A stretch of 64,000 nucleotides of DNA from Candidatus Komeilibacteria bacterium RIFOXYD1_FULL_37_29. Lineage in GTDB: Bacteria; Patescibacteriota; Patescibacteriia; UBA1558; GWA2-36-10. A model generated the notes under the pieces. It was not told the DNA's origin. It did not search any database and saw nothing but the letters and a program-made list of their open reading frames with translations. The position numbers and the translations under genes were made by a program. Shown here in pieces: positions 13,227 to 53,673 of the stretch; position 1 is the first letter of the stretch, and each line of letters opens with the position of its first letter. The DNA lies in contig MHKS01000004.1 in assembly GCA_001818495.1 (NCBI GenBank), positions 161,235 through 225,234 of the forward strand, given 5' to 3'.

Positions 13227-13925
13227 ATGGTAATTACAACATTAAGCTTACAGAACTTTACTTTAATAATCGCTGGGGCCATTAACTTGATAATGAGCAT
13301 TTTAGTTTTTTCCAGAGGGGTTAAGCATAGTAAAATTAATCTTTATTTTTCTTTGTTTACATTTTTTGGGTTTTTATGGGCAATAAGTTTATTATTTTCA
13401 AAGAGTTTATTTTTTGGTTTAGCAGCAGAGATATCTTATCGGACAGCTTATCTTGCGGCCATAGGTATAGCCATGGCCTTGTTCTATTTTTCTTATAATT
13501 TTCCATACAAAAATAAAAATTTAAATATATACTATCAACTATTTATTGTGTCATTGGCCATCATAATATCAGTATTAGGGTATTCCAAGGTTCATATTAT
13601 TGATTTTTATAATGGTGCCAACGCTTCTAATTGGTTTGTTGATTACTATAAACCATTTTATGCTTTTTATAGTTTATTTTTCCTTTATATAATATTTTCC
13701 GGGATGTATTTTTTAATTAGTAAATTAAAAAATATAGACATTTTTCTTAAGAGACAAATCATAATATTTTTAATTACGTTTATTATTGGTTTAATTATTG
13801 GGGCATATTTTAATTTATGGCTTCCTTATATGGAAAATTGGCGTTACGAATTTGCTGGGCCAATATGTGCAGTATTTATGAATGTTTATGTTTTTAATTT
13901 AATATTTCCCAAGCAAGAAAAATAG
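13227..13925 (+). CDS. stand-alone 7TM receptor-domain membrane protein, paralogous to the N-termini of the neighbouring sensors
   Basis: It has about seven TM segments. The motif SILVFSRGVKHSKINLYFSLFTFFGFLWAISLL resembles SLFVYWRGGKSILNRLWARTSLTISFWSFGLFG of the histidine kinase at 19801. Confidence 0.45.
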   Translation: MVITTLSLQNFTLIIAGAINLIMSILVFSRGVKHSKINLYFSLFTFFGFLWAISLLFSKSLFFGLAAEISYRTAYLAAIGIAMALFYFSYNFPYKNKNLNIYYQLFIVSLAIIISVLGYSKVHIIDFYNGANASNWFVDYYKPFYAFYSLFFLYIIFSGMYFLISKLKNIDIFLKRQIIIFLITFIIGLIIGAYFNLWLPYMENWRYEFAGPICAVFMNVYVFNLIFPKQEK

Positions 13926-19800: not shown

Positions 19801-22620
19801 ATGAACGCTTTTCCTCTATCTAGTTTAATAACAGCAATTTTAAGTTTAGCCTTATCTTTATTTGTTTATTGGAGAGGAGGCAAATCTATTTTAAATAGAC
19901 TTTGGGCAAGGACCAGTTTAACCATAAGTTTTTGGAGCTTTGGTTTATTTGGTGTTACATTTTTTTCAGATTATAATTATGCATATTTTTCTCAAACTAT
20001 TTTGGATATAGCGGGTGTATTTTTAGCTGTATTTTTTGTACACTTCGTTTTTAAATTAGTTGAGAAGAATAATAAGTTTTATAGATTTTTATTATATATT
20101 TTTTATTCAGTAGCAACATTATTAGCAATTTTAAGTTTTACAAAATATTTTAAAGTAGGATTAAAACCAGTTTTTGAATTTAGATATTGGATTGACCCGG
20201 GGCCAATATATATTATATTTCCAATATTTTTTTTAATTTTAGCTGTGGTTTCTATAACACTACTAATTATAGCAAGGGCTTCTTTTTCTGGTATTAAGAG
20301 TCAACAGATAAAATATGTTTTATATACAGCTTTTATAGGTTTTGGAGGAGGAGTTTTTAATTTTTTGCCTCAATTTTCTCATATATACCCCATTGGTAAT
20401 TATTTAGTTGGTTTTTACGCCTTTGCTATAACTTACGCAATGATAAAATACCGTCTGATGAATATAAGATTGATTATCACGCGCAGTATTCTATATGCCA
20501 TTTTGGTTGGTGCAGTAGCCGCTTTTTTTGCCTTGTCGGTAGTAGTAGTTGGTGAATTGATTGGTGGTAATACTCAAACTAGTAAAATAATCACTTATAT
20601 TGCCACATCTTTTATAGTAGTAGTATTTTTGGAGCCAGTAAAAAGGACTTGGGCCAAGCTAACTGACAAGATTTTTTATAAAGACAAAATTGATTATCAA
20701 GAAGTATTGCGAGAAGTAGGCAATGTAGTAGCTAGAGAGATTGACCTATATAAATTGTTAAAAGGCACTAGCCAACTACTAGCAGAGAGATTAAAAATCA
20801 AACAAGTATCGTCTTTTGTACCAAATGTCCAGGGGAAATTTCATCTTTTAGCCAGCTCCACTCAAAAAGAATCAGGCATTGTATTATCTGATGAATTGGT
20901 AAATTATATTCAAACCAATAAAAAGATTTTAATTATTGATGAATTGATTAGAGATCTTGGAGATTTGGATGAAAAATCCGAGCACTATAAAAATTTGAAT
21001 AGTTTTGTTAGTAATGCGGAAAACAATAAGATAGAAATGATAGTGCCGATAGTAGAAAGTAAAAATTTGACGGCTATATTGATTTTTAATGCCAAACAAT
21101 CCGGCGATTTGTATGAGCAAGATGATATAAACTTTTTAGAGGTATTGGGTCCGCAGATTGCCACATCCATTGAAAAATCTAAACTATACGAAGAAGTAGA
21201 GAGATTTAATAAAGAATTGCAACAAAAGGTAGAGGATAGGACCAAGAGTCTAAAAGAGGTCAATTTTGCTTTGGAGGAGAGAAACAAGTTTTTGACTACC
21301 ATTCAGGTGGTAACCAATATGATTAGTCGAACGCTTGATTTGAAAAAAGTCAATCAAATGATTGCCGACAGCTTGGCGACAGAAGTTGGTTATATTGGTG
21401 GAATGCTCAGTTTTGTAGACGAAGGCCACAAGTATCTCAAAGTAGGAGCTATTACCAATAATGAGCAGGCCAGAGATGCTTTCCGTATTTTATCCAAAGA
21501 ACCCAGAGACTATAAGAGTCTGTTGGAAGAAAACTATAATATTGGTGTCCAGACTTTTTTGACTGGAAAAATAAATTTTTCTGATCAACTGGCCAAATTC
21601 CTTTCCCCGCCAGTTGATAAAACGGAAATAGAACAAATTCAGAAAAAATTGGGTATCAAGACAATTGTCGGTGTGCCGGTGTTTTCTGAAGCCAAGATTA
21701 TTGGTGTGATTGAGTTTTATTTAGCGGTAACACGAGAAAAAATATCTTCATTGGATATTGAGATTATGACAGCCCTAGCCAATCAAGTTGGTATAGTGTC
21801 TCGTAACCTTAAACTGTATAACACACTCCAACATGCCAATGCCGAACTGCAAGATGCCAATACCAGACTGCGGGAGTTGGATAAAGCTAAATCAGAGTTT
21901 CTTTCTATTGCTTCTCATCAATTGCGCACCCCGATATCTGCCATCAAAGGGTATTTGTCCATGATGATTGACGGAGATTTTGGCAAACTACCGGATAATA
22001 TATCGGACGTAGTTAAAAATATTTTTGAAAGTGCGGCTCGTCTGGCTAGACTTATCAATATTTTCTTAAATGTCAGTCGTATTGAGTCTGGTCGTTTGAA
22101 ACTGGAAAAAAGACCTATGCAAATTGATGAATTGATTGATAGCGTTATAGTAGAACTTATCAACCAAGCCAAACAAAAAGGAGTAACATTGGAGTATAAG
22201 AAAAATAAAAAAGCGCCACCACTAATACTGGCCGATGCTGATAAGCTCCGGGAAGTAGTCTTGAACTTAATTGACAATGCTATCAAATATACACCTAAAG
22301 GATCAATAGTGGTAACGGTAAAGGCGGATGATAAATTATTAAATTTCAAAGTTACTGATACTGGTATTGGTATTAAAAAAGAAGAAGTGGGATCTTTATT
22401 TAGAAAATTTGTGCGTGGCTCGGGCGTAGCCCAGGTGCATACCAGCGGTTCTGGCTTGGGATTGTTTATTGCTCAAAAGATTATCAAAGAACACGACGGT
22501 CAGGTTTGGGCTGAGAGCGAGGGTAGTGGCAAAGGATCGGTCTTTCAATTTACTTTGCCAGTTTACAATGGGCATGATGTGCCGGCTTATAAGGAAGACG
22601 CCAAAGAGACTGGAAAATAG
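19801..22620 (+). CDS. sensor histidine kinase: N-terminal 7TM receptor domain, GAF-like domains, coiled coil, HisKA and HATPase_c
   Basis: It has an H-box SHQLRTPISAIKGY, an N-box NLIDNAIKYT, a G1 box VTDTGIGI and a G2 box GSGLGLFIAQ. About seven TM helices precede them. No response-regulator gene is adjacent. Confidence 0.8.
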   Translation: MNAFPLSSLITAILSLALSLFVYWRGGKSILNRLWARTSLTISFWSFGLFGVTFFSDYNYAYFSQTILDIAGVFLAVFFVHFVFKLVEKNNKFYRFLLYIFYSVATLLAILSFTKYFKVGLKPVFEFRYWIDPGPIYIIFPIFFLILAVVSITLLIIARASFSGIKSQQIKYVLYTAFIGFGGGVFNFLPQFSHIYPIGNYLVGFYAFAITYAMIKYRLMNIRLIITRSILYAILVGAVAAFFALSVVVVGELIGGNTQTSKIITYIATSFIVVVFLEPVKRTWAKLTDKIFYKDKIDYQEVLREVGNVVAREIDLYKLLKGTSQLLAERLKIKQVSSFVPNVQGKFHLLASSTQKESGIVLSDELVNYIQTNKKILIIDELIRDLGDLDEKSEHYKNLNSFVSNAENNKIEMIVPIVESKNLTAILIFNAKQSGDLYEQDDINFLEVLGPQIATSIEKSKLYEEVERFNKELQQKVEDRTKSLKEVNFALEERNKFLTTIQVVTNMISRTLDLKKVNQMIADSLATEVGYIGGMLSFVDEGHKYLKVGAITNNEQARDAFRILSKEPRDYKSLLEENYNIGVQTFLTGKINFSDQLAKFLSPPVDKTEIEQIQKKLGIKTIVGVPVFSEAKIIGVIEFYLAVTREKISSLDIEIMTALANQVGIVSRNLKLYNTLQHANAELQDANTRLRELDKAKSEFLSIASHQLRTPISAIKGYLSMMIDGDFGKLPDNISDVVKNIFESAARLARLINIFLNVSRIESGRLKLEKRPMQIDELIDSVIVELINQAKQKGVTLEYKKNKKAPPLILADADKLREVVLNLIDNAIKYTPKGSIVVTVKADDKLLNFKVTDTGIGIKKEEVGSLFRKFVRGSGVAQVHTSGSGLGLFIAQKIIKEHDGQVWAESEGSGKGSVFQFTLPVYNGHDVPAYKEDAKETGK

Positions 22621-22899: not shown

Positions 22900-22910
22900 T
22901 GATATTTTAA

Positions 22911-22941
22911 AACACCGCATCAAACGCGGTGTTTTTTGTTT
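22911..22941 (+). terminator. rho-independent terminator
   Basis: aACACCGCatcaaacGCGGTGTtttttgttt is a 7-bp stem followed by a T-run. Confidence 0.8.
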
Positions 22942-23181
22942 ATAGATTTTTTATGAGAAGGGGGAGGGGATAACTTTTATAGATTTTTCTTGACTCAGCC
23001 CCCCGCGAGGAGCTGGGTTGACAACATTTTTTTATGAGTATATATTTAAAGTAGAAATATAAGACGGCTATTAATATAGCGACGGCTTATAAAAATGTCC
23101 TCTCACAATAAAATATATATGAAGAAAAACAATTTTGGGATCTAATATCAAGTTCATCACTCAACCACCAGGAGGATAGCC

Positions 23182-23970
23182 ATGGATTACAGCTTGATAG
23201 TTGACGAAGTAAAGAGGGTGGCAAACATAACAGAAACAGCTTTTTTGAAAAAATGGCAGGCAATACCTATTATTGACAACAGAGAAAAGTTATTGCTCAT
23301 TCCTGAAAATTTTTGTTATCCATTTTATGCTAACACTATGAATATCACTGAAGATAAAAGAATTTTTTTAAGAGAGGTGACATTTTTAATGTTTGTAAAA
23401 GCATATGAAATACTCGGGGGTCTCGGTTTGGAACTTAGAATATATGATGGTTGGAGGCCGGTTAGCTTACAGGAACAGCTTTATTGGTTGTATATGAAGC
23501 AATTTACAGTATGTAAATTTTCTAACATAGCCCCTTTGTTTTCTCAAGCTATTTTGGCTACAGAAATTAAAAATGTTTTTAGTTTATTGGTCAAAAAAAC
23601 TCAAGAAATCCTGCATAAATTAAATAGGAGATATGTAAGTTGGCCTTCAAACAATAGAGATTTTCCCAGTCCTCATGCTACTGGCGGAGCTGTGGATGTT
23701 TGGATATTACAGAATGGTAAGTCTGTAGATTTGGGGGTCAATTTTGACTCTATGGAAGAATCTGCTGGTGCTTTCTATCATTTGCGTAATGATAGAATTA
23801 AGTTTAAAAATGATGATCGGGTATGCTACTATAGGAATGTATTGCTTTATGCCATGGTTAATGCTGGATTTTCTTGCTATCCGCCAGAGATTTGGCATTT
23901 TAATTATGGTAATCAAATGCATGCTTTGGTTACTAAAAAAGTAGCGAATTATTCATATATTGAACCATAG
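23182..23970 (+). CDS. VanX/DdpX-like D-Ala-D-Ala dipeptidase (peptidase M15D family)
   Basis: The family motifs are present in order: DGWRP, SPHATGGAVDV...DLGVNFDS.EES (S-x-H-x-x-G-x-A-x-D...D...E) and C-terminal GF...EIWHFNY. A strong GGAGG RBS sits 7 nt before the ATG. Confidence 0.6.
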   Translation: MDYSLIVDEVKRVANITETAFLKKWQAIPIIDNREKLLLIPENFCYPFYANTMNITEDKRIFLREVTFLMFVKAYEILGGLGLELRIYDGWRPVSLQEQLYWLYMKQFTVCKFSNIAPLFSQAILATEIKNVFSLLVKKTQEILHKLNRRYVSWPSNNRDFPSPHATGGAVDVWILQNGKSVDLGVNFDSMEESAGAFYHLRNDRIKFKNDDRVCYYRNVLLYAMVNAGFSCYPPEIWHFNYGNQMHALVTKKVANYSYIEP

Positions 23971-24029
23971 TCTGGCAGAGAATATATATAATATGTTCTC
24001 TGCCACTAATAATTTTAAAATTATATTTT

Positions 24030-25067
24030 ATGTCAAAGAGAATGAAGATAGCTATTGTTGTTGGCGGTGTATCAAACGAAAGAGATATTTCTATAAAAAG
24101 TGGGCAACATATTTTTGATCATTTATCTAGTATTAACTATGATAAATGTTTTGTTGAAATTACCAAAGAGGGCAAGTGGCTTTTATCTGGCGATAAGTTG
24201 AAAATAGGAGACGGTGTTTCCAAAAATAAAACTTTGTCTATATTATATTCCCAAAGAGGTATAAACAAAAATGACCTAGAAAGTTTTGATGTAATATTTT
24301 TGGCTTTGCACGGAAAATTCGGGGAGGATGGTAAAATCCAGTCCATATTGGATATTATAGGCATACCATATACTGGCTCGGGTGTATTGGCTAGTGCTTT
24401 ATCCATGAATAAGGCCAAGACTATGCAATTTTTGAGGAGTATGGACATTAAAACGCCGAAATTTTTACAGCTATTAAATAAAAACGATATAGATTTGAAA
24501 GTAGTAGATAAATTTATAGTAGAGAATTTTGGTTATCCTTGCATAGTAAAGCCAAACGAATCAGGATCTAGCATTGGTATCAACATAGTGCATTCTGTTA
24601 GCGATCTGTCGCCGGCAATAAAAGAAGCTTATCAGGAAGATAATCAGATATTAATTGAAGAGTTTATAAAAGGCAGAGAATTTACTTGTGGAGTATTGGG
24701 TAATAGTAATCAAAACAAAATATTAGCTTTGCCACCGGTGGAAGTATTAACTGATAGGAAATTTTTTGATTATGAGGCGAAATATATTTCTAAAAACACC
24801 AAAGAAATTTGTCCAGCTGATATACCTAGTAAATTAGCAGAGGATATTCAGTCTTTATCTCAAAGAGTACATAGGGCCATTGGTTGTGATGGACTTACAC
24901 GTTCGGATTTCATATTAAAAAATAATGAGCTTTATTTTTTGGAAATAAATACCTTGCCAGGACTTACAGAAGGAAGTTTGTGCCCCAAAGAGGTAAAAGC
25001 AGTCGGCATGACTTTTTCAGAATTTTTAGATAAACAGATAAAGTTAGCAATAGAAAAACGTAAATAA
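24030..25067 (+). CDS. ddl: D-alanine--D-alanine ligase
   Basis: MKIAIVVGGVSNERDISIKSG, LHGKFGEDGKIQSILDIIGIPYTGSGVLASALSMNKAKT and EINTLPGLTE are canonical Ddl ATP-grasp signatures. Confidence 0.85.
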   Translation: MSKRMKIAIVVGGVSNERDISIKSGQHIFDHLSSINYDKCFVEITKEGKWLLSGDKLKIGDGVSKNKTLSILYSQRGINKNDLESFDVIFLALHGKFGEDGKIQSILDIIGIPYTGSGVLASALSMNKAKTMQFLRSMDIKTPKFLQLLNKNDIDLKVVDKFIVENFGYPCIVKPNESGSSIGINIVHSVSDLSPAIKEAYQEDNQILIEEFIKGREFTCGVLGNSNQNKILALPPVEVLTDRKFFDYEAKYISKNTKEICPADIPSKLAEDIQSLSQRVHRAIGCDGLTRSDFILKNNELYFLEINTLPGLTEGSLCPKEVKAVGMTFSEFLDKQIKLAIEKRK

Positions 25068-25934
25068 ATGAATAAAAAATGTTACATATTAATGAATGCC
25101 GATGGTCCAGAAGAGTTAGCATCGATCTTATCAGCTAAAGATGTTTTTAGGGCAGTAAAATTTTTTTATGATCCAACATTATTAAAATTAACAAAAGATA
25201 ATTGGTTTAGAAAAATACAGACTTTAGATAAAGGGTCTATTTGTATCTTAACAACACATGGCGATTTTGGCGAAAATGGTAGTCTGCAAAAAGTATTAGA
25301 AATAAAAAAAATTGCTCATACACATTCCCCAGCAACAGTTTGTGGTATTTTACTTAATAAACATTTAAGTAAAATGTTTTATAAATCTTTAGGCATCAGT
25401 ACTCCGTCCTGGTATTTTAATGACAATATATATGGTTGCAAACTCAATAAAATGTTTTCTAAAAAGTTTGTGAAAAAGCCGTTATTAGGAGGCAGTAAAG
25501 TAGGTATAAAGAAAGTAAACAATATATCTAGTGGTGATGTTGATCAATATATCTATGAAACATATGTCGACGGTTCTATACAAATTAGTATGAGTATTTT
25601 AGGAAGCGGTGAGAATGCATTGTCTTTGGCACCAGTTATAAGAAAGAGGCCTCTTTTTGCCGCTTCAAAATACAGTATCTCTTATAATAAGATAGATCAG
25701 CGGATAATAGATAAATGTGGAGCTTGGGCGAAAAAAATACACATATCATTAGGATGCCGTGGAGTAACAAAAACAGATTTTTTGCTAGATAAGTATGGGG
25801 AGATTTGGGCCATTGAAACAGACGCTATTCCAGGATTGTCAAAGACTAATGCAATCTCAATAAGTGCAGAAAGGTCGGGTTTAAGTTACAGAGAGCTAGT
25901 AAGTAAAATTTTACAAGATGTTTATGTCGAATAA
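25068..25934 (+). CDS. divergent, N-terminally truncated D-Ala-D-Ala-ligase-like ATP-grasp protein
   Basis: ILTTHGDFGENGSLQKVLEIKKIAHTHSPATVCGILLNKHLSK parallels LHGKFGEDGKIQSILDIIGIPYTGSG...NKAKT of the upstream Ddl. C-terminal ETDAIPGLSKTN parallels EINTLPGLTEGS. Its start overlaps the ddl stop. Confidence 0.55.
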   Translation: MNKKCYILMNADGPEELASILSAKDVFRAVKFFYDPTLLKLTKDNWFRKIQTLDKGSICILTTHGDFGENGSLQKVLEIKKIAHTHSPATVCGILLNKHLSKMFYKSLGISTPSWYFNDNIYGCKLNKMFSKKFVKKPLLGGSKVGIKKVNNISSGDVDQYIYETYVDGSIQISMSILGSGENALSLAPVIRKRPLFAASKYSISYNKIDQRIIDKCGAWAKKIHISLGCRGVTKTDFLLDKYGEIWAIETDAIPGLSKTNAISISAERSGLSYRELVSKILQDVYVE

Positions 25935-27297
25935 ATTAGCTTTATTTGGAGGAAAGCCTTTGGTTAAAGATCATAAGAGATTAAGGCTTGATTGGCCCAT
26001 TGTAGATAAAAGTGACTATGGCGCTATTAAAAAAGCTTTTGATGATAGAGATTTTTCTGGTAGGGGTTCAAAAAGAATATCTGATTTAGAATACATTTTT
26101 TCAAAATATTATGATGGCTTATATGCAACGGCTTTAAACAGCGGAACAGCGGCACTGCATTTGGCGTTGATTTCTTTGGGTATTAAGCCTGGCGATGAGG
26201 TGATAGTACCAGCTCTAACTTTTGTGGCGACAGCCATGAGTGTGATACATAATAATTCTATTCCAGTATTTGCTGATATTGACCGTAAAAATTTTAATAT
26301 ATTACCATCCAGCATAGAGAAGAACATATCAAAAAGAACTAAGGCGGTTATAGTAGTGCATTTGCATGGAGCCCCGGCTGATATGGATCCCATAATAAAA
26401 ATATGCAGAAAATATAAGTTGAAATTGATAGAGGATGTAGCTCAGGCACCAGGCGCTACTTATAAGGGTAGAAAAATTGGTACATTTGGCGACGCAGCTA
26501 TATTCAGTTTGATGTCCCAAAAAAATTTAGCTACTTGTGGCGAATGTGGAATTTTATTGAATAAAAGTAAGAATGATAAAAATAGAGCAGAGATGGCACG
26601 TATTTATGGTGAAATTGTTAAATCTAATACTGAAAGGATTTATAATTCATATACTCTGGGTTGGAATTACACATTAAATCCAATTCAAGCGGCTATGGCC
26701 ATTAGCCAACTAAAAAAATTTAATAAGATTACTAATGAGATACAATATAGAGCTAGAAAATTAAATAATGCCCTTAATAAATTTGGCTGGATTTTGCCAC
26801 CAGTCGAATCAGAAGGAACTGAAAGCGTTTTTCATTTTTATAGGTTCCAGTTAAATTCTAATTATTTTGATTATAAGTGTGTTGGTAGATTCAGACAGGC
26901 TGTGCAAGATGCTCTAAATGCCGAAGGTTTGAATGTCAGACATTATCAGAAGATTCCTCTGGCCGGGCAGCCATTTTTTCAAAAAAATGATATAAATAAA
27001 GAATTGCCCTGGTCATTAAATAGTAATAGTTATATTTATAATATAAATGATTATCCAAATACTTTAGAAGTAATTAATAGCACACTAATTCTTGGAGCGA
27101 TTAGTTCTGCTCCTGGCTATCTGCTTTGTCCGGGTACGATAGAAAAATATTTATTAGGTTTTGAAAAAATTGATAAAAATATTCATAAATTGCTCAGTTA
27201 TGCTGATGGTATCAAATATTCGGAACCATGGGAAGAAATGAAAGTCATATCAGATAGTTTTGGAGCTAAATATGGGGTATTTTCTAGTGGTGGCTAA
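25918..27297 (+). CDS. DegT/DnrJ/EryC1/StrS-family PLP-dependent aminotransferase with C-terminal extension
   Basis: LNSGTAALHLALISLGIKPGDEVIVPALTFVATA and the later FSLMSQKNL (Lys-containing PLP-site region) are present. Its 459 aa compare with a typical 370-400 aa. Confidence 0.8.
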   Translation: MFMSNKLALFGGKPLVKDHKRLRLDWPIVDKSDYGAIKKAFDDRDFSGRGSKRISDLEYIFSKYYDGLYATALNSGTAALHLALISLGIKPGDEVIVPALTFVATAMSVIHNNSIPVFADIDRKNFNILPSSIEKNISKRTKAVIVVHLHGAPADMDPIIKICRKYKLKLIEDVAQAPGATYKGRKIGTFGDAAIFSLMSQKNLATCGECGILLNKSKNDKNRAEMARIYGEIVKSNTERIYNSYTLGWNYTLNPIQAAMAISQLKKFNKITNEIQYRARKLNNALNKFGWILPPVESEGTESVFHFYRFQLNSNYFDYKCVGRFRQAVQDALNAEGLNVRHYQKIPLAGQPFFQKNDINKELPWSLNSNSYIYNINDYPNTLEVINSTLILGAISSAPGYLLCPGTIEKYLLGFEKIDKNIHKLLSYADGIKYSEPWEEMKVISDSFGAKYGVFSSGG

Positions 27298-28009
27298 ACA
27301 GATTAATTATAAAATTATTATGGGAGTTGTAGATAAAATTTTGTATAATTTTAATAACGGTGTTGATATATTGAGTTGTAATAATGACTTGTCATTAGTT
27401 GATTGTTCAGGAAAATTATATGAGTATGAGACAAAAGTTAATTTAGATAATTTTGGTGATCTTGCTGAAACACTTAGAATAATTAAATCATTGAAAATAT
27501 TAAAATTTGAAAATAGATCGGAGATGCATTATTTATTTAACATTAGTGAAAATATAATCGCTTATCTAGTATTTGTTGATGGGCTTTCTCAAGTTTGGAT
27601 AAAGTTTAAATATGATATTAACAAAATCAACACAAGTGAGTTTAAGATACCATTGATATTAAGAAGGGGTAAAAAATTTCGTCCGGGTGATTATAATTAT
27701 AAGAGAGCGTTTCATACTCTTATGAAAGGGAAATATTATGATTCTTATTATAAAAAATGTATAAATTATTTTTTTAGGTATAATAATTTTTTTTATTCAC
27801 TTTCTTTATCTTTAGTCAATAATCAAAACGGTTTTCAGCATAATCAAATGGAATTTGAATATGAAGGTGTATTAAAAGGCATGGATAATCCAAATAGGGA
27901 GGATATATTAAAAGGTTTTGATTTACTTTTTAAAAATTCATTTCCTTTCCTATTTGGTAAATTTAATACCGAAACAAAATATGAAGCATTGAAAAATCAA
28001 TTTCGTTAA
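27260..28009 (+). CDS. hypothetical protein with possible CYTH-like (triphosphate-tunnel) signature (very tentative)
   Basis: It has LYEYETKV (ExExK-like) and C-terminal MEFEYEGV (ExExE-like) strands. The true start may be the ATG at 27320 (MGVVDK), just after the degT stop. It is extremely A+T-rich. Confidence 0.35.
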   Translation: MELNMGYFLVVAKQINYKIIMGVVDKILYNFNNGVDILSCNNDLSLVDCSGKLYEYETKVNLDNFGDLAETLRIIKSLKILKFENRSEMHYLFNISENIIAYLVFVDGLSQVWIKFKYDINKINTSEFKIPLILRRGKKFRPGDYNYKRAFHTLMKGKYYDSYYKKCINYFFRYNNFFYSLSLSLVNNQNGFQHNQMEFEYEGVLKGMDNPNREDILKGFDLLFKNSFPFLFGKFNTETKYEALKNQFR

Positions 28010-28034
28010 AATATAATATTATTATGTAATCAAA

Positions 28035-28499
28035 ATGAATATATATTTAAAAAAACTTATTAAAGAAAAATTTATAAAACCGCTTAAAGTTTTGGATCTT
28101 GGCGCGGAGGATTTTTTAGATGTGGATCATTTAAGACAATTAAATTGGATATGTGAAGGTGTGGATATAAATAATGGAGTTGATTTAGAAAAGTATTTTT
28201 TGTCATCTAACTATCCGTTTGATTTGGTCTTTTCTAATTATGTTATACATAAAATAAAGAACAGGGAGCAATTTGCCAAAATAATTTTTGACAATTTAAA
28301 AAAAGATGGTTGGTTTTTTATACACACTTTTGACAAGACAGACGAGAATAGCCAGTCTGTTTTAACAGAGGGTTATTTGTATGAGATATTATCTAACCAA
28401 GGTTTTAGAAACATTAAAACAAAAGTTTTTAGTTTTTATGATAATCAAGAAAATCATAAACGTTGGCATAAAATATTAGAGGCCACGGGGCAAAAGTAA
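28035..28499 (+). CDS. small class-I methyltransferase-fold-like protein with atypical motif I
   Basis: VLDLGAEDF sits in the motif I position but lacks GxGxG. GVDIN, FDLVFSNYVIH and LKKDGWFF follow in the motif II/III positions. Confidence 0.35.
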   Translation: MNIYLKKLIKEKFIKPLKVLDLGAEDFLDVDHLRQLNWICEGVDINNGVDLEKYFLSSNYPFDLVFSNYVIHKIKNREQFAKIIFDNLKKDGWFFIHTFDKTDENSQSVLTEGYLYEILSNQGFRNIKTKVFSFYDNQENHKRWHKILEATGQK

Positions 28500-28581
28500 A
28501 TGTAAATTATGAAATTTATATATGATCATTGTGATTTAAAAAAAATTGTGGTGACAATATATAAAATAATATTATTTAAAT

Positions 28582-29220
28582 ATGAGAGAATACCTTAACC
28601 TAAAATCAATAAAAGCCGATAAAAAATTACAAGCATTTCTTGCGACTACTCAGAGAGAGTTTAATTCATTTTTTCATTTCAAAATTGTTGAACCGTTGAT
28701 TTTTTTAGTAACAACTCGCCGAGATTTAGATTTGCTGGTCGGTAGGAAAACAGAAAGATGGTTTGTCGGAATGACTAAAAATAATTGTATTTATATATTG
28801 GATAAAAAAAAATTTGCCAAACAATCAAATCATAAAGAGGAAGATTTTTGGCAAACATTAAAACATGAGTACAGTCATATTTATTATACGCAAATAACCA
28901 AAAGTCACTATCCATTTTGGCTAAATGAGGGGCTGGCCTGTCTTCTTTCCGGTAAAAAGCTGGTCCTTAAAAAAGATAGTAAAGATAAACTAGTGAATGT
29001 TTTGTCGTATTTTAATCATAGGGATAGGGATATATATATGGTCGGCCATTACTGGGTAGAGTATTTATTAAAAAATTATGGTAAAAGAAAACTGGTGCAG
29101 TTAATAAAAAATCTAAATTTTAAATCAGAAATAAATAGTCGGCAATTTGTTGATAAATTTTTTAAGATATACGGTTTTAGATTCACCAAAACAAATTTAA
29201 TGAAAATGATAATGTTATAA
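28582..29220 (+). CDS. putative zinc metallopeptidase (gluzincin, Peptidase_MA-like)
   Basis: HEYSH (HExxH) is followed 19 aa later by WLNEGLA (third-ligand Glu), which is the HExxH...E gluzincin arrangement. Confidence 0.5.
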   Translation: MREYLNLKSIKADKKLQAFLATTQREFNSFFHFKIVEPLIFLVTTRRDLDLLVGRKTERWFVGMTKNNCIYILDKKKFAKQSNHKEEDFWQTLKHEYSHIYYTQITKSHYPFWLNEGLACLLSGKKLVLKKDSKDKLVNVLSYFNHRDRDIYMVGHYWVEYLLKNYGKRKLVQLIKNLNFKSEINSRQFVDKFFKIYGFRFTKTNLMKMIML

Positions 29221-29224
29221 ATAG

Positions 29225-29746
29225 ATGAAATTTGTATATGACAAAAAAATAGACAATGAGTGTCATCAGAGAATTAATGCTCGTGATGATATTTTTGGTG
29301 AGAAAATAAAAAAAGACATATATCCTGTTAGTGATGAAATAGTTCAGCAGTTTTCTAATAAATGGACGTCAGAGATAGAAGGGTCTTTTGAAAAGGGGAT
29401 ATTTGAAATATTCAATAAACACATCCCTAAAGATTTTATTTGCTACATTATTTCTAGCCCTTACTCTATGGATATCAAAGAGGGCATAGCTATATCGGCT
29501 TCTTCTTTAGGCGCGATGATAAGAATGATTTGTCATGAGGCCAATCACTATATGTTTCGGCAGAGTAATTATAGAGATAAATATTTTCCGAATATGGATA
29601 TAGAAGACGCCAAGGAAATATTTACTATCGTCAATAATATTTATTTCAAAGATATTATGGAGACGCCAGATAATGGTTGGAAAAAATTTTGGTCGCAGAG
29701 AAAAGGTTTTTTACAGAAATGGCAATCTAATAATTTAAAACAATGA
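29225..29746 (+). CDS. hypothetical protein with an HExxH motif (HEANH), a possible second metallopeptidase-like protein
   Basis: ICHEANHYMF is present. No clear downstream Glu ligand was found. Confidence 0.35.
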   Translation: MKFVYDKKIDNECHQRINARDDIFGEKIKKDIYPVSDEIVQQFSNKWTSEIEGSFEKGIFEIFNKHIPKDFICYIISSPYSMDIKEGIAISASSLGAMIRMICHEANHYMFRQSNYRDKYFPNMDIEDAKEIFTIVNNIYFKDIMETPDNGWKKFWSQRKGFLQKWQSNNLKQ

Positions 29747-30029
29747 ACATTAATTTTAAAAAATTTAATAATAAAGATGTACAGTATTTACTAGTTATGA
29801 TCTTGATATTTTTTTGTTCGATTATCATCACTATTATATGGAGCATGGGGTATGTAGTTTGGTGGTTATTTTCTAAATTAAAATTATATATATTAAAGAA
29901 AAACGATTTTGTGAGTTAATTATCGGTTCATTGACAACAATATCTATCTTTGAATATAAAGATGATGAATAAAAGCGATTTTGGCAGATAACTAGGTTAT
30001 GTTATAATTATTTATAATTAAATAAATTT

Positions 30030-30611
30030 ATGAATAAGAAGATAATAGTGTTATTAAGTGTCTGTATTTTTATATTACTAACTATTTGGGGGTATAATAG
30101 TTTGTATGATTCTGATACTCCAAATAATAATGAAAATATCAATCTTAATAATGCGTCAGATGAAATAGACACTGGTGATTGGGTGGAGTATAGGAATGAA
30201 GCATTAGGGTTTGAATTTAAACATCCGGGTGATTGGATAGTAGAATTAAGAAGAGTAAATTACGGAATACATACTGCAGATGAAGTTTATTTTTATATCA
30301 CAGTAAGTAAAAATAATCCATCAGAGAGTAATCGTTTTTCTAAATTAATAATAACCACTTTTGAAAATATCGAAGGGAAATCTCCGGAAGAAGTGATTTC
30401 TATAAATGAAAATTTTTCTCTTAATGAATTTCAGAGTTTATTTTTAGATGATTTTTTGTTAAATGGAGTGATAGTTAAAAAATATATGATTCCTGGTTTT
30501 ATTTCTTTGCCAGCTGTAATTTTTTATAGTAATGATAAAGTACACCAAATAAAATATAGTCTAGAAGAGGATATGTTTATGGAGATTATGGATACATTTA
30601 AATCTATATAA
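30030..30611 (+). CDS. signal-anchored or secreted hypothetical protein
   Basis: It has an N-terminal hydrophobic segment IIVLLSVCIFILLTIW. No recognisable motifs were found. Confidence 0.5.
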   Translation: MNKKIIVLLSVCIFILLTIWGYNSLYDSDTPNNNENINLNNASDEIDTGDWVEYRNEALGFEFKHPGDWIVELRRVNYGIHTADEVYFYITVSKNNPSESNRFSKLIITTFENIEGKSPEEVISINENFSLNEFQSLFLDDFLLNGVIVKKYMIPGFISLPAVIFYSNDKVHQIKYSLEEDMFMEIMDTFKSI

Positions 30612-30786: not shown

Positions 30787-33700
30787 ATGCAAAAGATCAT
30801 AGTATTTATTGTGGCGTTGATGTTGTTCAACATTAACCTTTTTGCGCAAACCGTTCCAATGGCTGATGGTTTTCAGTTGCCATTATATGAGTATGATATT
30901 AGTGATAATTGTCTTGAGTGGGGCGGTTGGGGGTCTAGTTTTTATGAAGGACAGCGTCATTTAGCAGATGATGAATGTTCTCCGTCTGGAACGGAAGTTT
31001 TCGCATCGGCCAATGGTATTGTTCGTTTCTCTCATAACAATGGGTCTTGCCCTGATAACTGGGGACCTTTGATTGTAATTGAATCAAACACAAACAACGG
31101 TAGTGTCTGTGTTATTTATGGACATGTTGTAAGTGAACCATCAATTATTGAAGGAGGTTCAGTAGTTAGAGGTCAAAAAATTGGGAAAATTGCAGACGGT
31201 ACTGGATGTTGGTCTGATCATATTCATTTTGGTATTTACATAGGAGAATATGGAATGCCCAACGGCGAATATCCTGGCTGGCTTCGTGGTTATTTATTTC
31301 CTGGTGCATGGCCAGGTAATTATGTTGACCCTATATGGTATGTAGAAAATAATCCCCCCAGCTCTTCATCTACCGTTGGTTGTTTTAGCACTAATGACTG
31401 TAGTGGTGCTGTATCATTGTCTTTTCAACAAAAGTATAATGCTATGGCTACTGCGGGGCATCCTTTGGGGAATCCATGGGACAACGGCGGTTCTATCTAT
31501 GTTCATGAAGTAAATGGTATGTATATCCAAGACTTCCAGGATCCTCGTGATCAGGGCGGTCCTAGCAATGGATATTATCATCCATACACTGCACTGATCT
31601 ATGATGCTGCTACTGTTTCTACGGCCAATGTCCGTTTGCTAAAAGAAGGCTTTTGGGATACTTGGATGAATAATACTGGTTGGGTCAATTTTGGCTCACC
31701 GATTACTGACGAGTATTCTAATGGTGGGGAGATTTGGCAAACATTCCGTCGTTATGGTCAAAACTATCCTAGTAATCAGAGTGATTATGAGAATTTCTAT
31801 TTTACGTGGAATTCTAACACTCAATTACTGGAGGTTTTGGACAAAAACTATAATCCGGTGGATTTTTCACAATTGACCGTTACTACTGCTGATATTTTTA
31901 CTAGAGTTTTTAAAAGCGCTAGTTTAAATGATTCAACCTCAAATGAATTTAAGCAGTACAATGGACTGGATTATAGTTTAAGTGATAGTACGGGCGGCGG
32001 ATCACGATTAGTGTCGGATACTAAGATTAGTATTGCTAAGGTGACATCAACTACTACGGAGCCAGAGGGAGTCTATCATTCTGGTTTAATAGTCAGTAAT
32101 CTTGGTCAGCCTTTTCCTTTAATCAATCAGCGTGATTATGATAATTTTTACGCTGTGATTAATGGAACAGTAATACCAATTGATCCATTCACTATGAATG
32201 GTGATATGACTATTTACGTTGGCGGTTCTTCGTCTGGACCGGATATTCAATTTAGTCATTGGACTATTTATCCTAATCCAGGGACGGTTGGTCAGCAGAT
32301 TCATGTGGAAGGACAGATAAATAATCAAGGTTCTTCATCTGTTACTTTATCAGAAGTAAGAGTGGAGTTTTTTGATCCTAATGGTACGGAAATATATCAC
32401 TGGTCTGAGTACAATGTTACTCTAGATCCGGGATATTATTGGTACCAGTGGTTATATTGCTATCCCTACATTTCTGGTAATTATACGGCTCGTTTTCGTG
32501 GGCTCATAAATGGTCAATGGCAAACTTATTCCACACAAACTGTTTATGTTCAGAATAATCCTAATTACCCAGTAGCTGATTTTACTAGTAATCCTTTATC
32601 TGGTCCAGCGCCATTGACTGTTCGGTTTACTGATTTATCAACCAATAACCCCAAACGTTGGCAATGGTTGTTTGGAGACGGTAGCGTCTTGCATGATGTT
32701 CAAAATCCACAACATACTTTTGTCAATCCGGGAACTTATACTGTTGATTTATTGGTATTCAATGATTTTGGAGGCGATCGGATAATAAAAGGAGGATTCA
32801 TAACTGTTTATGAGGCAGTTGTGGCCAACTTTACATCTGATGTCGTTTCTGGATCAGTACCCCTGACTGTCCATTTTACTGATCAGTCAACTGGCAACCC
32901 CACATCCTGGTATTGGGATTTTGGTGATGGCAATGTGTCGTATGACCAGCATCCACTACATACATATGTAGTAGCCGGCATATACTCAGTGTCTTTGACA
33001 GTTGGCAACCAAAATAGTTCAAATGTCAAGGTAGTTTCCAATATGATTACAGTAAAGGAAACGTTTGATCATTGTGCTATAGGGATATTAACAACTAAGG
33101 ATAATGGAGGTGGATGGAGGGGATTTACTATTCGTGGTAATTACGCTTATGTGGCCAATGGATTGCTAGGCTTGCAGATAGTGAACATCAGCAACCCGGT
33201 AGCACCACAGATCATTGGTTCGGTAAATACCCCAGATTATGCTTTCCATGTTTCTATTTTGGATAATTATGCCTATGTATCTGATGGTTCATCAGGCTTG
33301 CAGATAGTGAACATCAGCAACCCGGTAGCACCACAGATCGTTGGTTCGGTGCATCTTCCAGATAGAGTATATGGAGCATCAATTGTTTCTAATTTCATTT
33401 ATGTCTTTGATGCTGGTTCTAGACTCAGTATTTTTGATGCCAGTAATCCAGCATCACCAACTTTGGTCAACTCACTAGTCCTACCGGCCAATGTCACCGG
33501 CATCAGTTTTTATAAAACTTATGCTTATATGACCAATGGCAGTTATGATTTGCGTATTTTTGATATTAGCAACCCGGTAGGGCCAGTTCTTCTTAGCACC
33601 AAGAGCTTACCTGGCTATGCCTCTGATGTTTATGCTGATAGCAATTACGTTTATGTGGCTGCTTATGCGTCTGATTTGCAGATAGTCGATGCCAGCAATC

Positions 33701-34512
33701 CAACATCACCACAACTAATTGGTTCGCTCGATTTATCCTACTATGCTTTGGAAGTTGTGGTTTCCGATGGATATGCTTATGTTGTTAATGTTGATCCGGA
33801 CACTTCTAGTGTTGAGATAATTGACATTAGCAATCCAGCATCACCAGCGCTTGTAGGATCTGTTGGTTCAGCTTATGATCAGATTATGGATATAATTGTA
33901 GAGGATGGTTTGGCTTATATGACAGATTATCAAGGAGGCTTTGCAATTGTGTCGCTTGATTGTGCTTTGCCGGCTTCACCAAACTTCACAGCTACTCCAA
34001 AGTCTGGCTACTCTTCTTTGACTGTTCAATTTGCTGATCAGTCAACGGGTAACCCTACTTCATGGTACTGGGATTTTGGTGATGGCACTACATCGACTCA
34101 GCAAAATCCGCAGCATATCTATAGAGGAGGTGGCAATTGTACGGTTAGTCTTACTGTTAGTGATGGTGATTTTACCAACACCAAAATCATTGACAATTTC
34201 ATTACGATCAAAGTCAAAAACTTTAAAGATGATCGCAAGATGGAATTGTATGCAAACCACCCCAACCCTTTTAATCCTAGTACTACTATTAGTTATTCGT
34301 TGCCAACATCGCAACACGTTAGCCTAGTGGTTTATAACATACTAGGCCAAGCAGTAACTACTCTAGTAGATGGAATGAAAGAAGCAGGGGAACATTCAGC
34401 AATTTGGGATGGTCGTAATGATCATGGCAGTCCAGTTTCTTCGGGAATGTATTTTTACCGACTAACTACTGTTGAGAGTTCAATTGTTCGTAAAATGATC
34501 TTACTAAAATAA
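30787..34512 (+). CDS. large secreted multidomain protein: signal peptide, M23 peptidase domain, Ser/Thr/Gly/Asn-rich region, 2 PKD domains, LVIVD-type beta-propeller repeats, a third PKD domain, and a C-terminal T9SS(Por)-type sorting-domain-like region
   Basis: It has a signal peptide (MQKIIVFIVALMLFNINLFAQT). The M23 motifs HLADDE...GTEVFASANGIV...GQKIGKIADGTG...DHIHFGIY are present. PKD signatures such as FTDQSTGNPTSWYWDFGDG occur three times. GLQIVNISNPVAPQI-type LVIVD repeats are present. The C-terminus HPNPFNPSTTISYSLP...VSLVVYNILGQAVTTLVDG...AGEHSAIWDGRNDHG..VSSGMYFYRL matches the T9SS type-A sorting-domain pattern. An RBS AAAGGAG sits 8 nt upstream. Confidence 0.8.
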   Translation: MQKIIVFIVALMLFNINLFAQTVPMADGFQLPLYEYDISDNCLEWGGWGSSFYEGQRHLADDECSPSGTEVFASANGIVRFSHNNGSCPDNWGPLIVIESNTNNGSVCVIYGHVVSEPSIIEGGSVVRGQKIGKIADGTGCWSDHIHFGIYIGEYGMPNGEYPGWLRGYLFPGAWPGNYVDPIWYVENNPPSSSSTVGCFSTNDCSGAVSLSFQQKYNAMATAGHPLGNPWDNGGSIYVHEVNGMYIQDFQDPRDQGGPSNGYYHPYTALIYDAATVSTANVRLLKEGFWDTWMNNTGWVNFGSPITDEYSNGGEIWQTFRRYGQNYPSNQSDYENFYFTWNSNTQLLEVLDKNYNPVDFSQLTVTTADIFTRVFKSASLNDSTSNEFKQYNGLDYSLSDSTGGGSRLVSDTKISIAKVTSTTTEPEGVYHSGLIVSNLGQPFPLINQRDYDNFYAVINGTVIPIDPFTMNGDMTIYVGGSSSGPDIQFSHWTIYPNPGTVGQQIHVEGQINNQGSSSVTLSEVRVEFFDPNGTEIYHWSEYNVTLDPGYYWYQWLYCYPYISGNYTARFRGLINGQWQTYSTQTVYVQNNPNYPVADFTSNPLSGPAPLTVRFTDLSTNNPKRWQWLFGDGSVLHDVQNPQHTFVNPGTYTVDLLVFNDFGGDRIIKGGFITVYEAVVANFTSDVVSGSVPLTVHFTDQSTGNPTSWYWDFGDGNVSYDQHPLHTYVVAGIYSVSLTVGNQNSSNVKVVSNMITVKETFDHCAIGILTTKDNGGGWRGFTIRGNYAYVANGLLGLQIVNISNPVAPQIIGSVNTPDYAFHVSILDNYAYVSDGSSGLQIVNISNPVAPQIVGSVHLPDRVYGASIVSNFIYVFDAGSRLSIFDASNPASPTLVNSLVLPANVTGISFYKTYAYMTNGSYDLRIFDISNPVGPVLLSTKSLPGYASDVYADSNYVYVAAYASDLQIVDASNPTSPQLIGSLDLSYYALEVVVSDGYAYVVNVDPDTSSVEIIDISNPASPALVGSVGSAYDQIMDIIVEDGLAYMTDYQGGFAIVSLDCALPASPNFTATPKSGYSSLTVQFADQSTGNPTSWYWDFGDGTTSTQQNPQHIYRGGGNCTVSLTVSDGDFTNTKIIDNFITIKVKNFKDDRKMELYANHPNPFNPSTTISYSLPTSQHVSLVVYNILGQAVTTLVDGMKEAGEHSAIWDGRNDHGSPVSSGMYFYRLTTVESSIVRKMILLK
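33168..33350 (+). repeat. 57-bp direct repeat (33168-33224 and 33294-33350, one mismatch) inside the large gene, corresponding to adjacent LVIVD repeats
   Basis: aggcttgcagatagtgaacatcagcaacccggtagcaccacagatc(a/g)ttggttcggt occurs twice, 126 bp apart. Confidence 0.85.
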
Positions 34513-46734: not shown

Positions 46735-46744
46735 ATTTTTAGAA

Positions 46745-46876
46745 ATTAAATATAGATAGCCGTAGACAGTGGGTTTTGAGCTAGAATTAGCTCAAATTAA
46801 AGATCCTACCGAGGTGAAAAAGATAAATTTTTCAATGTCTGCGCTATTTACGCAGATTTTTTAATTAATAAAAATT
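46745..46876 (+). promoter_or_regulatory. rplJ 5' leader with L10-leader-like hairpins and an intrinsic attenuator directly before the start codon
   Basis: It contains a hairpin GAGCTAgaatTAGCTC (46778-46793) and a hairpin TCTGCGctatttaCGCAGA plus TTTTTT (46838-46862), 15 nt before the ATG. L10(L12)4 autoregulation of rplJL via a leader structure is established knowledge. Confidence 0.5.
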
Positions 46877-52361: not shown

Positions 52362-52363
52362 TC

Positions 52364-53326: not shown

Positions 53327-53336
53327 AGTATATATT

Positions 53337-53660
53337 ATGTTGAAAACAAAAACAAAAATAATGAATATTTGGCAATTTGCCAAAAGGGGCAATACTTTCA
53401 TGGTGGTTGGTTTGGTTTTATTACTGATGACCATGCTAGTTTCTACCAATTATGCCAACAGTCAATCTCTTGAGAGAAATGAGCTCAGCAAAAATGTGCA
53501 AATAGCTGAAGATGACTTGAGGTTATTTAATGCCGAAGTCAGTCGCTTACAGGCTACCGAAAGGCTAGAGCAGGAAAGCCAGAGATTGAATTTGGTAAAG
53601 ATCCAGACCAATGACATCTACTATTTATCTGGTGATGATGATTTGGTGGCTTTGAAATAA
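53337..53660 (+). CDS. ftsL: cell division protein FtsL-like (single TM plus coiled coil)
   Basis: It has TM TFMVVGLVLLLMTMLV and a coiled coil. Its position between rsmH and ftsI fits FtsL. Confidence 0.6.
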   Translation: MLKTKTKIMNIWQFAKRGNTFMVVGLVLLLMTMLVSTNYANSQSLERNELSKNVQIAEDDLRLFNAEVSRLQATERLEQESQRLNLVKIQTNDIYYLSGDDDLVALK

Positions 53661-53673
53661 AAATTAATTACTT

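Follow-up and report, generated by a model that had tools for sequence, protein, structure and literature searches.

Ligases of the D-alanine--D-alanine ligase (Ddl) family stand together with D,D-dipeptidases in the glycopeptide-resistance (van) operons, such as VanHAX and VanC-VanXY-VanT, with those of the VanC type adding an enzyme dependent on pyridoxal phosphate (PLP). A survey of the resistome of the candidate phyla radiation (CPR) counted many glycopeptide-resistance-like genes in these bacteria, including vanX-like ones, noted the lack of a synteny analysis, and speculated that D-Ala-D-Lac or D-Ala-D-Ser might be the natural termini in the CPR (Maatouk et al., 2021; PMC8651080). Here we describe a cluster with comparable components from a member of the CPR/Patescibacteria, Candidatus Komeilibacteria bacterium RIFOXYD1_FULL_37_29, which lies in a 64,000-nt stretch of contig MHKS01000004.1 (hereafter the window). 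It encodes, in order, a zinc dipeptidase of the M15D family, a canonical Ddl, a second and divergent Ddl-derived ligase that we name DdlL, a DegT-type aminotransferase and a protein resembling the CYTH/triphosphate tunnel metalloenzymes (TTM). It does not represent a van resistance cassette: the M15D-Ddl pair is a conserved core synteny across the CPR/Patescibacteria, beside which DdlL, DegT and the TTM-like gene form a rare, co-inherited accessory trio. We tentatively interpret the whole, giving this account chances a little short of even, as a housekeeping node of D-Ala/D-Ala-D-Ala metabolism joined by an accessory module in which a transaminase, an amidoligase and a phosphohydrolase would make a D-alanyl amide for the envelope.

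The first four genes had been proposed in an earlier note on this DNA to be a van-like cassette lacking VanH, and their positions and family assignments all stand, including those of the canonical Ddl and the DegT-type aminotransferase (Table 1). The second and third ORFs abut, the third and fourth overlap by 17 nt, and a strong AGGAGG Shine-Dalgarno sequence precedes the ATG of the first.

Table 1. Features of the cluster, its flanks and the parallel add-on loci discussed in the text (positions are those of the window unless prefixed by a locus number)
Feature	Position	Strand	Basis
Terminator-like hairpin	22909..22935	+	10 bp stem and T-run; consensus match only
Sigma-70-like promoter match	23018..23046	+	TTGACA-17 nt-TATATT, 11/12 hexamer positions
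Zinc D,D-dipeptidase, M15D (VanX/DdpX) family, CPR-specific long form, 262 aa	23182..23970	+	PF01427
Canonical D-alanine--D-alanine ligase (Ddl), Tyr216 type	24030..25067	+	TIGR01205, 332.6 bits vs cutoff 245.65
DdlL, distinct Ddl-derived ATP-grasp ligase	25068..25934	+	Divergent Ddl family; predicted full Ddl fold
DegT/DnrJ/EryC1-family PLP aminotransferase, long form, 459 aa	25918..27297	+	PF01041, 262.3 bits vs cutoff 19.8
Divergent CYTH/TTM-like protein, 229 aa	27320..28009	+	Predicted fold and motifs
Small class-I methyltransferase-like protein	28035..28499	+	PF13489, 46.6 bits
Parallel serine hydroxymethyltransferase add-on loci	L001:2661-7531; L012:9935-14960; L018:6216-11041; L118:6001-11019

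The first protein is, as had been claimed, a dipeptidase of the M15D type. It matches the Pfam Peptidase_M15 profile PF01427 with 51.9 bits against a cutoff of 27, the match covering profile positions 99-189 of 199 (the C-terminal half only); it displays the motifs SPHATGGAVD, FDSMEES and EIWHF and aligns with VanX (PDB 1R44) across the SxHxxGxAxD and ExxH motifs and the 'DGWRP' arginine. The transition-state Arg71, the zinc ligands His116, Asp123 and His184 and the catalytic Glu181 of VanX correspond to its R92, H165, D172, H239 and E236, all of which are invariant in 29 CPR homologs, and like VanX and DdpX it appears to be cytoplasmic, carrying no signal peptide. Unlike them, it has ~60 additional residues, including an N-terminal extension and ~25 aa inserted between the arginine and the SxHxxGxAxD motif, and it remains far below the NCBIfam equivalog cutoffs for both DdpX (NF007557, 55.1 vs 176) and VanX (NF033115, 23.9 vs 320). 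An identical protein (100%) is found in Candidatus Komeilibacteria bacterium RIFOXYC1_FULL_37_11 (Komeiliibacteriota, Parcubacteria group), and homologs of 45-67% identity abound in the Patescibacteria, whereas identity to M15D proteins from outside the CPR is only ~30%. Its most likely activity is the hydrolysis of D-Ala-D-Ala, or of a closely related D,D-dipeptide, in the cytoplasm, with release of D-Ala. The partner of this dipeptidase is a plain D-Ala-D-Ala ligase encoded downstream, rather than a VanA-type ligase encoded upstream or the ddp dipeptide transporter.

That partner keeps E15, S150, K215, Y216, R255, D257, E270, N272, S281 and L282, and its best match in the PDB is the DdlA of P. 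aeruginosa (2.5e-61). It scores far below the van-ligase models (VanG, 254 vs 495; D_ala_D_lac, 228 vs 550), with Tyr at position 216. The first nine of these residues recur in all the canonical Ddl proteins adjacent to M15 that we checked, a signature that reads as that of plain D-Ala-D-Ala ligases and not the Phe/His type of D-Ala-D-Lac ligases. Within the window, MurF is encoded at 55492-56757, ~30 kb from Ddl (TIGR01143, 332.5 vs cutoff 288.6), as are MraZ, MraW, an FtsI-type penicillin-binding protein (PBP), UppP and MltG/YceG. The presence of these peptidoglycan genes with a plain Ddl and MurF therefore points to a normal D-Ala-D-Ala route to peptidoglycan, and the housekeeping supply of MurF probably falls to this Ddl. 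A dcw cluster opens with MraZ, MraW, the FtsI-type PBP and MurF (window 51930-56875) but breaks off at a tRNA-Glu gene, without going on to murD, ftsW, murG, murC and ddl; ddl itself is found 27 kb away, beside the dipeptidase.

CPR loci for comparison were gathered by a scan of GTDB species genomes and by exact-protein look-up, with neighbors called using phmmer; 28 M15 loci were assessable, and the tallies below describe a sample, not a census. The scan returned at least 22 CPR loci with 45-64% identity to the dipeptidase, followed by a sharp drop to ~30% in other bacteria. Ddl lies directly downstream of M15 on the same strand in 23 of the 28 loci; one gene separates the two in two loci, Ddl adjoins M15 in another orientation in two, and only L020 has no Ddl beside M15. 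The pair is present in the Komeilibacteria, Uhrbacteria, Nomurabacteria, Wolfebacteria, Azambacteria, Moranbacteria, Andersenbacteria, Minisyncoccota, Woesebacteria and Saccharibacteria, as well as in the more distant Peribacteria, and across the Parcubacteria, Microgenomates, Saccharibacteria and Peribacteria it is mostly found without a second ligase. The window and a Nomurabacteria genome further share a backbone on both sides of it, with an AMP-binding enzyme, an acyltransferase, a HAD protein and a seven-transmembrane (7TM)-GAF histidine kinase upstream, and phosphoglycerate kinase (PGK), enolase, two iPGM genes and DUF212 downstream. Outside the CPR, most M15D genes either have no Ddl beside them or follow it, the arrangement of van operons.

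Some of these loci have further peculiarities. An apparent M15::Ddl fusion ORF at L017:198-2129 was rejected as an assembly frameshift, M15 being split at 491/498 and its normal C-terminus replaced by read-through; frameshifts interrupt the M15 gene in several metagenome-assembled genomes (L017, L023, L029 and L030). Two divergent Ddl-like paralogs and a 213-aa protein of no recognized family lie upstream of M15-Ddl in the Nomurabacteria genome (L002/L016:5318-7877), and two more Ddl-like paralogs occupy the opposite strand beside a C39-like peptidase at L030:15486-17538 (- strand); the M15-Ddl locus looks like a hotspot for paralogs of the Ddl family. Several CPR loci (e.g. L007:6283-15618 and L096:3425-9842) also have in common, in the vicinity of M15-Ddl and DdlL-DegT, genes for Ham1-like nucleoside triphosphate pyrophosphatases, for C39-like cysteine peptidases and for ABC exporters.

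Taken as a core synteny of a whole superphylum, the pair differs from the van operons, which are mobile resistance islands, and the idea that M15 and Ddl belong to an accessory van-like cassette does not survive the comparison. We argue that the vanX-like resistome matches in the CPR mostly represent this housekeeping pair. A parallel to the dipeptidase is Aad of Lactobacillus plantarum, likewise a chromosomal VanX-like dipeptidase alongside a housekeeping Ddl, which reportedly, in work of Deghorain et al. from 2007, edits the dipeptide pool of that Ddl. The L. plantarum Ddl is, however, a Phe-type D-Ala-D-Lac ligase, so that hydrolysis of D-Ala-D-Ala improves its selectivity; this logic is not directly applicable here because the Ddl of the Komeilibacteria is of the Tyr type.

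The second ligase, DdlL, had been described as divergent and N-truncated. Its divergence is evident, with scores below all Ddl cutoffs (PRK01372, 113.5 vs 243; TIGR01205, 86.2 vs 245.65) and of at most 65 bits on all van-ligase models, but it is not truncated: its alignment to the family profile starts at residue 4, equivalent to profile position 8 of 305, that with E. coli DdlB runs end-to-end, and the predicted structure is a complete three-domain Ddl (pLDDT 88) whose top 50 Foldseek matches are all Ddl or VanA structures (TM 0.67-0.81, reaching 0.81 with DdlB-type structures). The shortness of the protein reflects internal deletions, chiefly in the omega loop. A comparison of 13 members of the DdlL clade, with residues numbered by E. 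coli DdlB, showed that E15, H63, E68, K97, K144, E180, D257 and E270 are kept in all, and S150 in 12 (Gly in L030), whereas S151K, R255K, N272D, S281N/R and L282A/S are substitutions common to all 13, which also share an omega loop ~11 aa shorter and without a conserved Lys215-Tyr216. In terms of these residues, DdlL is a ligase that appears to keep the half of the active site that handles ATP, Mg and the donor, with its acceptor site remodeled. The omega-loop determinant, retained by every van ligase, is missing from DdlL, which is therefore no D-Ala-D-X ligase of the VanA or VanC kind. Its members form a single long-stemmed clade apart from canonical Ddl in a crude neighbor-joining tree without support values, and the family is rare, with 8 clusters in an indexed search. 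The comparison of ligase residues and synteny thus gives a divided answer to the question of plain specificity and core status raised in the earlier note: Ddl is plain and its pairing with M15 is core, but DdlL is not plain and its module is patchily distributed.

These observations bear directly on the proposal of a van-like cassette in which DegT makes a D-X precursor, DdlL joins it into D-Ala-D-X and M15 removes D-Ala-D-Ala, conferring intrinsic insensitivity to glycopeptides. We regard it as improbable. The ligase co-transcribed with M15 is the plain Tyr216 Ddl, with which M15 is also paired in the many genomes lacking a second ligase, no van-ligase cutoff is approached, and DdlL is devoid of the omega-loop Lys with Tyr/Phe/His and has an altered clamp for the carboxylate of the second D-alanine (D-Ala2). 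A scan of the ORFs of the window saw no 2-hydroxyacid dehydrogenase (VanH), racemase (VanT) or response regulator (VanR), nor is there a VanS: the 939-aa 7TM-GAF kinase upstream is set apart by a terminator. We know of no DegT-family enzyme that makes alpha-D-amino or hydroxy acids. The order of dipeptidase then ligase is the reverse of that in van operons, whereas several non-CPR M15D loci do have the van-like order with Ddl upstream. What the proposal does have in its favor is the resemblance of the architecture to VanC operons with their PLP enzyme (VanT), ligase and D,D-peptidase, the recurrence beside M15-Ddl of a slot for a PLP enzyme and a second Ddl-family ligase in two versions, the basal DdlL-clade gene beside a MurF-like ligase and M15 in L101, and the published speculation on D-Ala-D-Lac and D-Ala-D-Ser termini in the CPR (Maatouk et al., 2021; PMC8651080). 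The suggestion that the aminotransferase fills the slot of the precursor enzyme is accordingly borne out only in part: DegT is coupled to DdlL wherever this could be assessed and the slot for a PLP enzyme and ligase recurs, but the D-Ala-D-X ligase that it would serve is not there.

The DegT gene begins directly 3' of DdlL, with an overlap of 4-17 nt, in 11 of the 11 loci that have downstream sequence (the window, L013, L030, L091, L093, L095-L099 and L102). Its PLP lysine is identifiable through the alignment of FSLMSQK with FSLQATK of Fic25, and the aspartate of EDVAQA is present. Fic25 (8GYH) is also its closest solved relative (2e-80, 274 bits, 39% identity over 387 aa), followed by Ser5 (8Y96, 212 bits). 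Fic25 converts a 6-oxo amino acid bound to a carrier protein to the 6-amino compound in ficellomycin biosynthesis (PMC11726168); since the ketone on which it acts is in a non-sugar side chain, enzymes of this DegT subgroup can aminate non-sugar ketones. Like Fic25 and Ser5, which belong to pathways using the carrier protein AmCP, DegT is of the long form (~440-460 aa) and has the conserved PLP lysine, but the identity to Fic25 is only 39%, and the window contains none of the AmCP, LysX-type ligase, kinase, reductase and transketolase of such pathways. Given the absence of these partners from the window, the substrate of DegT probably differs from those of Fic25 and Ser5. An AmCP-dependent pathway was considered and rejected, the window holding no LysW-like zinc-ribbon ORF.

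The same relationships could be taken to indicate a cassette for a small molecule, such as an antibiotic-like pseudopeptide, with the M15 dipeptidase as a self-protection or maturation enzyme. Fic25 and Ser5, the top solved relatives of DegT, come from secondary-metabolite clusters, a PEP mutase (phosphoenolpyruvate mutase) gene lies near L101, and transposases flank one of the parallel cassettes discussed below (L118). Pathways for dipeptide and peptidyl-nucleoside antibiotics do pair ATP-grasp ligases with aminotransferases. Nevertheless, we consider this very improbable, as no ORF for a LysW/AmCP-like carrier protein exists in the window, the module has no kinase, reductase, transketolase or exporter, CPR genomes are tiny, and the constant attachment to a housekeeping Ddl argues for primary envelope metabolism.

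A greater claim to attention belongs to the decoration of glycans, in which DegT would be a nucleotide-sugar 4-/3-aminotransferase and DdlL would N-acylate the amino sugar with D-Ala for an S-layer, pilus or surface glycan, with no link to the peptidoglycan stem; its place near the D-Ala enzymes would be explained by this use of D-Ala. N-(D-alanyl) amino sugars occur in bacterial glycans, there is room in the open acceptor site of DdlL for a bulky, nucleotide-linked substrate, methyltransferases are found nearby, and the best NCBIfam matches of DegT are PseC and LegC, with perosamine synthases reaching ~170 bits in the PDB search. However, the cutoffs of the sugar-aminotransferase equivalogs are all missed by more than 200 bits (PseC, 192.5 vs 423.5; LegC, 190.6 vs 420; PRK11706, 174.7 vs 375; ArnB, 165 vs 631; those of WecE and DesI are not reached either), the perosamine synthases and other sugar aminotransferases score ~170 bits or less, below Fic25 with its non-sugar substrate, and no gene for a dehydratase, glycosyltransferase, nucleotidyltransferase or flippase is in or beside any copy of the module examined. 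On balance we hold a glycan role to be unlikely.

The fifth gene, which had gone unnoticed in the earlier note and probably starts at the ATG at 27320, 22 nt past the DegT stop, encodes a protein with no match in Pfam (even at E = 10), NCBIfam, PDB sequences, PADLOC or PHROGs. A Foldseek search with its AF2 model (pLDDT 71, from a 5-sequence alignment) returned CYTH/TTM structures as top matches (1YEM, 7NSD, 2DC4 and 3N0Z, with class IV adenylate cyclase and ygiF also listed) at E-values of 2e-7 to 1e-4 and TMt of 0.5-0.6. An alignment of 43 sequences has E37 and K39 (ExExK), K97, R115, K145, E178, E180 and K220 as invariant residues, a pattern of charges that would be expected of a tunnel lining. 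With known CYTH/TTM proteins (PF01928; 1YEM, 7NSD, 3N0Z and 5A60) it would share a predicted beta-barrel tunnel, the N-terminal ExExK and a later ExExE; it differs in having no significant PF01928 profile match and in being ~50 aa longer than a single-domain CYTH. The best PDB match of the family profile was the CYTH protein 2GFG, non-significant at E = 0.15 though with both motifs aligned, and hhalign against canonical CYTH gave a probability below 5%, the shallow profile being negative and the deep one matching at the level of motifs only. An exhaustive profile search among 1.84 billion proteins recovered only 50 representatives of the family.

The TTM-like gene accompanies DdlL-DegT in 8 loci, in which it follows DegT (the window, L089, L091 and L093), lies between M15 and Ddl (L013 and L030) or is divergently upstream (L098 and L115). 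In L093/L094 the order M15-Ddl-DdlL-DegT-TTM is exactly that of the window, but amid toxin-antitoxin and pilin genes; hence, the five genes travel as a unit. The trees of Ddl and DdlL are congruent for the loci that they share. In both L093 (4506-5870) and L094 (10857-12221), which were assembled independently, DegT is broken into two ORFs of 254 and 197 aa; a pseudogene, a programmed event and an assembly error common to both are possible explanations. The most distant cluster, on two marine contigs of 104 and 280 kb (L099/L100:7084-13655), has the order methyltransferase-DdlL-DegT-Ddl with M15 on the opposite strand; this M15 protein, of 392 aa, has the CPR-type 'YVSxPS...PSPHxTG' insertion, and L099 has a canonical Pfam CYTH gene 0.6 kb past it, ~1.7 kb from Ddl. 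In L101 (27-4272), the M15 dipeptidase is followed by an alpha/beta hydrolase, a divergent MurF-like ligase of 545 aa (MurF model, 182 vs cutoff 288.6) and a basal ligase of the DdlL clade, with no DegT and with an EamA transporter and the PEP mutase gene downstream. The methyltransferase-like protein that follows the TTM-like one in the window is possibly a peripheral member of the module: methyltransferases non-homologous to it flank DdlL in L096 and L099, and the module of L093 has none, so that it is no constant part.

A parallel add-on follows M15-Ddl in four other CPR loci (Table 1), in which a serine hydroxymethyltransferase (SHMT), encoded directly after Ddl, is joined by a methyltransferase and another ligase of the Ddl family, none of them homologous to the DdlL-DegT-TTM module. 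The second ligase passes the Ddl cutoffs in L118, where the add-on is flanked by rve and Y1 transposase genes, but not in L001; in those of L001 and L018, Phe replaces Tyr216, and E15, H63 and S150 are altered as well. Altogether, at least 8 of the 28 M15-Ddl loci carry an extension of a PLP enzyme and a second Ddl-family ligase, in two non-homologous versions. The SHMT genes raise the prospect that the PLP enzyme (DegT or SHMT) supplies D-Ala in the absence of alanine racemase, with M15 freeing D-Ala from host-derived D-Ala-D-Ala and the ligases consuming it. CPR bacteria are auxotrophic episymbionts, and DdpX-type enzymes probably serve the utilization of D-Ala-D-Ala. A chlamydial SHMT (GlyA) has, moreover, been characterized as a potential source of D-Ala in the absence of alanine racemase (PMC3935232). 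We nonetheless rate such a supply or salvage route as quite improbable: MurF could use imported D-Ala-D-Ala directly, making hydrolysis and re-ligation a waste of ATP; DegT enzymes, being of fold type I, have no known D-alanine-forming activity; and the remodeled DdlL and the TTM-like protein are left unexplained.

Weighing these alternatives, we return to the interpretation of a housekeeping node with an accessory amide-forming module. Here, Ddl would make D-Ala-D-Ala for MurF, while M15D would hydrolyze D-Ala-D-Ala or a near relative, such that the pair would control how large and how pure the D-Ala/D-Ala-D-Ala pool is, and would not provide glycopeptide resistance. DegT would turn a keto compound into an amine, and DdlL, with the omega-loop lid and the clamp for the D-Ala2 carboxylate lost, would activate a D-Ala-type carboxylate as an acyl phosphate and couple it to this bulkier, non-standard amine to yield a D-alanyl amide. 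The TTM-like enzyme may then strip a phosphate or triphosphate from the substrate or the product. The product of the module probably ends in the cell envelope; the neighborhood of Ddl, M15D and the MurF-like gene of L101 favors a fate as a peptidoglycan precursor over the amino-sugar glycan, which is the main alternative.

A precedent for this logic is provided by the amidation of the HS:2 capsule in Campylobacter jejuni, in which the transaminase Cj1437 yields a phosphorylated amine, the C-terminal ATP-dependent amidoligase of Cj1438 joins this amine to a carboxylate, and the phosphatase Cj1435 then removes the phosphate (PMC11800397). The succession of transaminase, ATP-dependent ligase and phosphohydrolase is the same as that proposed here, as an analogy of logic only: in C. 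jejuni the carboxylate is a polymer-bound glucuronate, the phosphatase belongs to the HAD family and not to CYTH/TTM, and the ligase is not Ddl-derived.

Several points weigh against our interpretation. First, a Ddl co-expressed with a dipeptidase for its presumed product looks futile. Second, the conservation of E15, H63 and S150 in the donor site of DdlL suggests D-Ala as the acyl donor but is not proof of it, and R255K together with the loss of K215 could equally signify a different chemistry or a low activity. Third, the nearest NCBIfam matches of DegT, PseC and LegC, are nucleotide-sugar enzymes. Fourth, the assignment of the fifth protein to the TTM fold draws on a medium-confidence model and on motifs, with the sequence-profile tests being negative or non-significant. 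Finally, the comparison loci are all metagenome-assembled, including the four with frameshifts listed above and L093/L094 with their split DegT.

Going further, one may conceive of a so far undescribed peptidoglycan-precursor pathway with the Ddl and dipeptidase as a CPR-wide gate on the dipeptide pool, onto which interchangeable add-ons are fitted that build non-canonical D-alanyl amides or dipeptides, which a MurF-type ligase then loads onto the stem. We view this generalization as unlikely; if it were true, uncultivated CPR bacteria would have a chemically distinct wall terminus or side chain, possibly insensitive to glycopeptides and lysins. The CPR accounts for a large share of bacterial diversity, of which almost nothing is cultured. 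A limited search of the literature found no description of the CPR-wide M15D-Ddl pairing, the DdlL clade or the DdlL-DegT-TTM trio, nor a link between the Patescibacteria and a D-Ala-D-Ala dipeptidase, and among the works found vanX-like CPR genes were mentioned only in the resistome survey (PMC8651080). The locus offers cloneable targets: the CPR-wide Ddl/M15D pair with its metabolic paradox, a new clade of Ddl that has a rebuilt acceptor site and goes with a Fic25-like aminotransferase, and a second, analogous add-on. Should the products of the add-ons enter the wall, they would constitute a new class of peptidoglycan modification, with the 'vancomycin-resistance-like' matches of the CPR recast as housekeeping metabolism. 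Should they not, a habit of annotation would still be corrected and two small new families, DdlL and the CYTH-like proteins, recognized.

As for the surroundings of the cluster, the terminator and the promoter-like site reported 5' of the block are both present, as consensus matches only. The hairpin terminates the unit of an upstream 70-aa ORF and the histidine kinase; terminator-like sites in the region number 4, against 3.0 expected from shuffles, and promoter-like sites 63, against 49.5 expected in such A+T-rich DNA, so that the promoter match is weak evidence. The block is not markedly more A+T-rich than its surroundings, as had been asserted: its GC content is 0.331, the window as a whole having 0.361, and the z-scores of the single genes run from -0.4 to -0.7. 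An argument for horizontal transfer from composition was rejected, all four genes lying less than 0.8 standard deviations from the gene GC of the window, and an origin as a defense system or phage was likewise set aside, PADLOC and PHROG having given no relevant match. The truly A+T-rich stretch is formed by the next five genes (window 27272-30611, GC 0.266), namely the TTM-like gene, the short methyltransferase, a weak Peptidase_MA-like gene (28582-29220) and 2-3 orphan ORFs (29225-29746 and 30030-30611); except for the TTM-like gene, these have no homologs in other copies of the module.

Beyond this stretch, a 1241-aa secreted-looking protein (window 30787-34512) combines Peptidase_M23, several PKD domains, LVIVD repeats and a C-terminal FlgD_ig-like domain; its gene has a GC content of 0.40, above that of its surroundings, and interrupts the Ddl-PGK backbone relative to the synteny in the Nomurabacteria. 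Directly upstream of the cluster, the 939-aa histidine kinase (window 19801-22620; HisKA_7TM, GAF, HisKA and HATPase) has upstream counterparts in L001, L002, L011 and L029, with no response regulator nearby. Two further ORFs, at 11763-13160 and 13227-13925 of the window, carry the 7TM sensor region only. Farther downstream, an Rfam L10_leader match (window 46742-46871; 57.1 bits vs cutoff 44) lies upstream of a probable rplJ-rplL.

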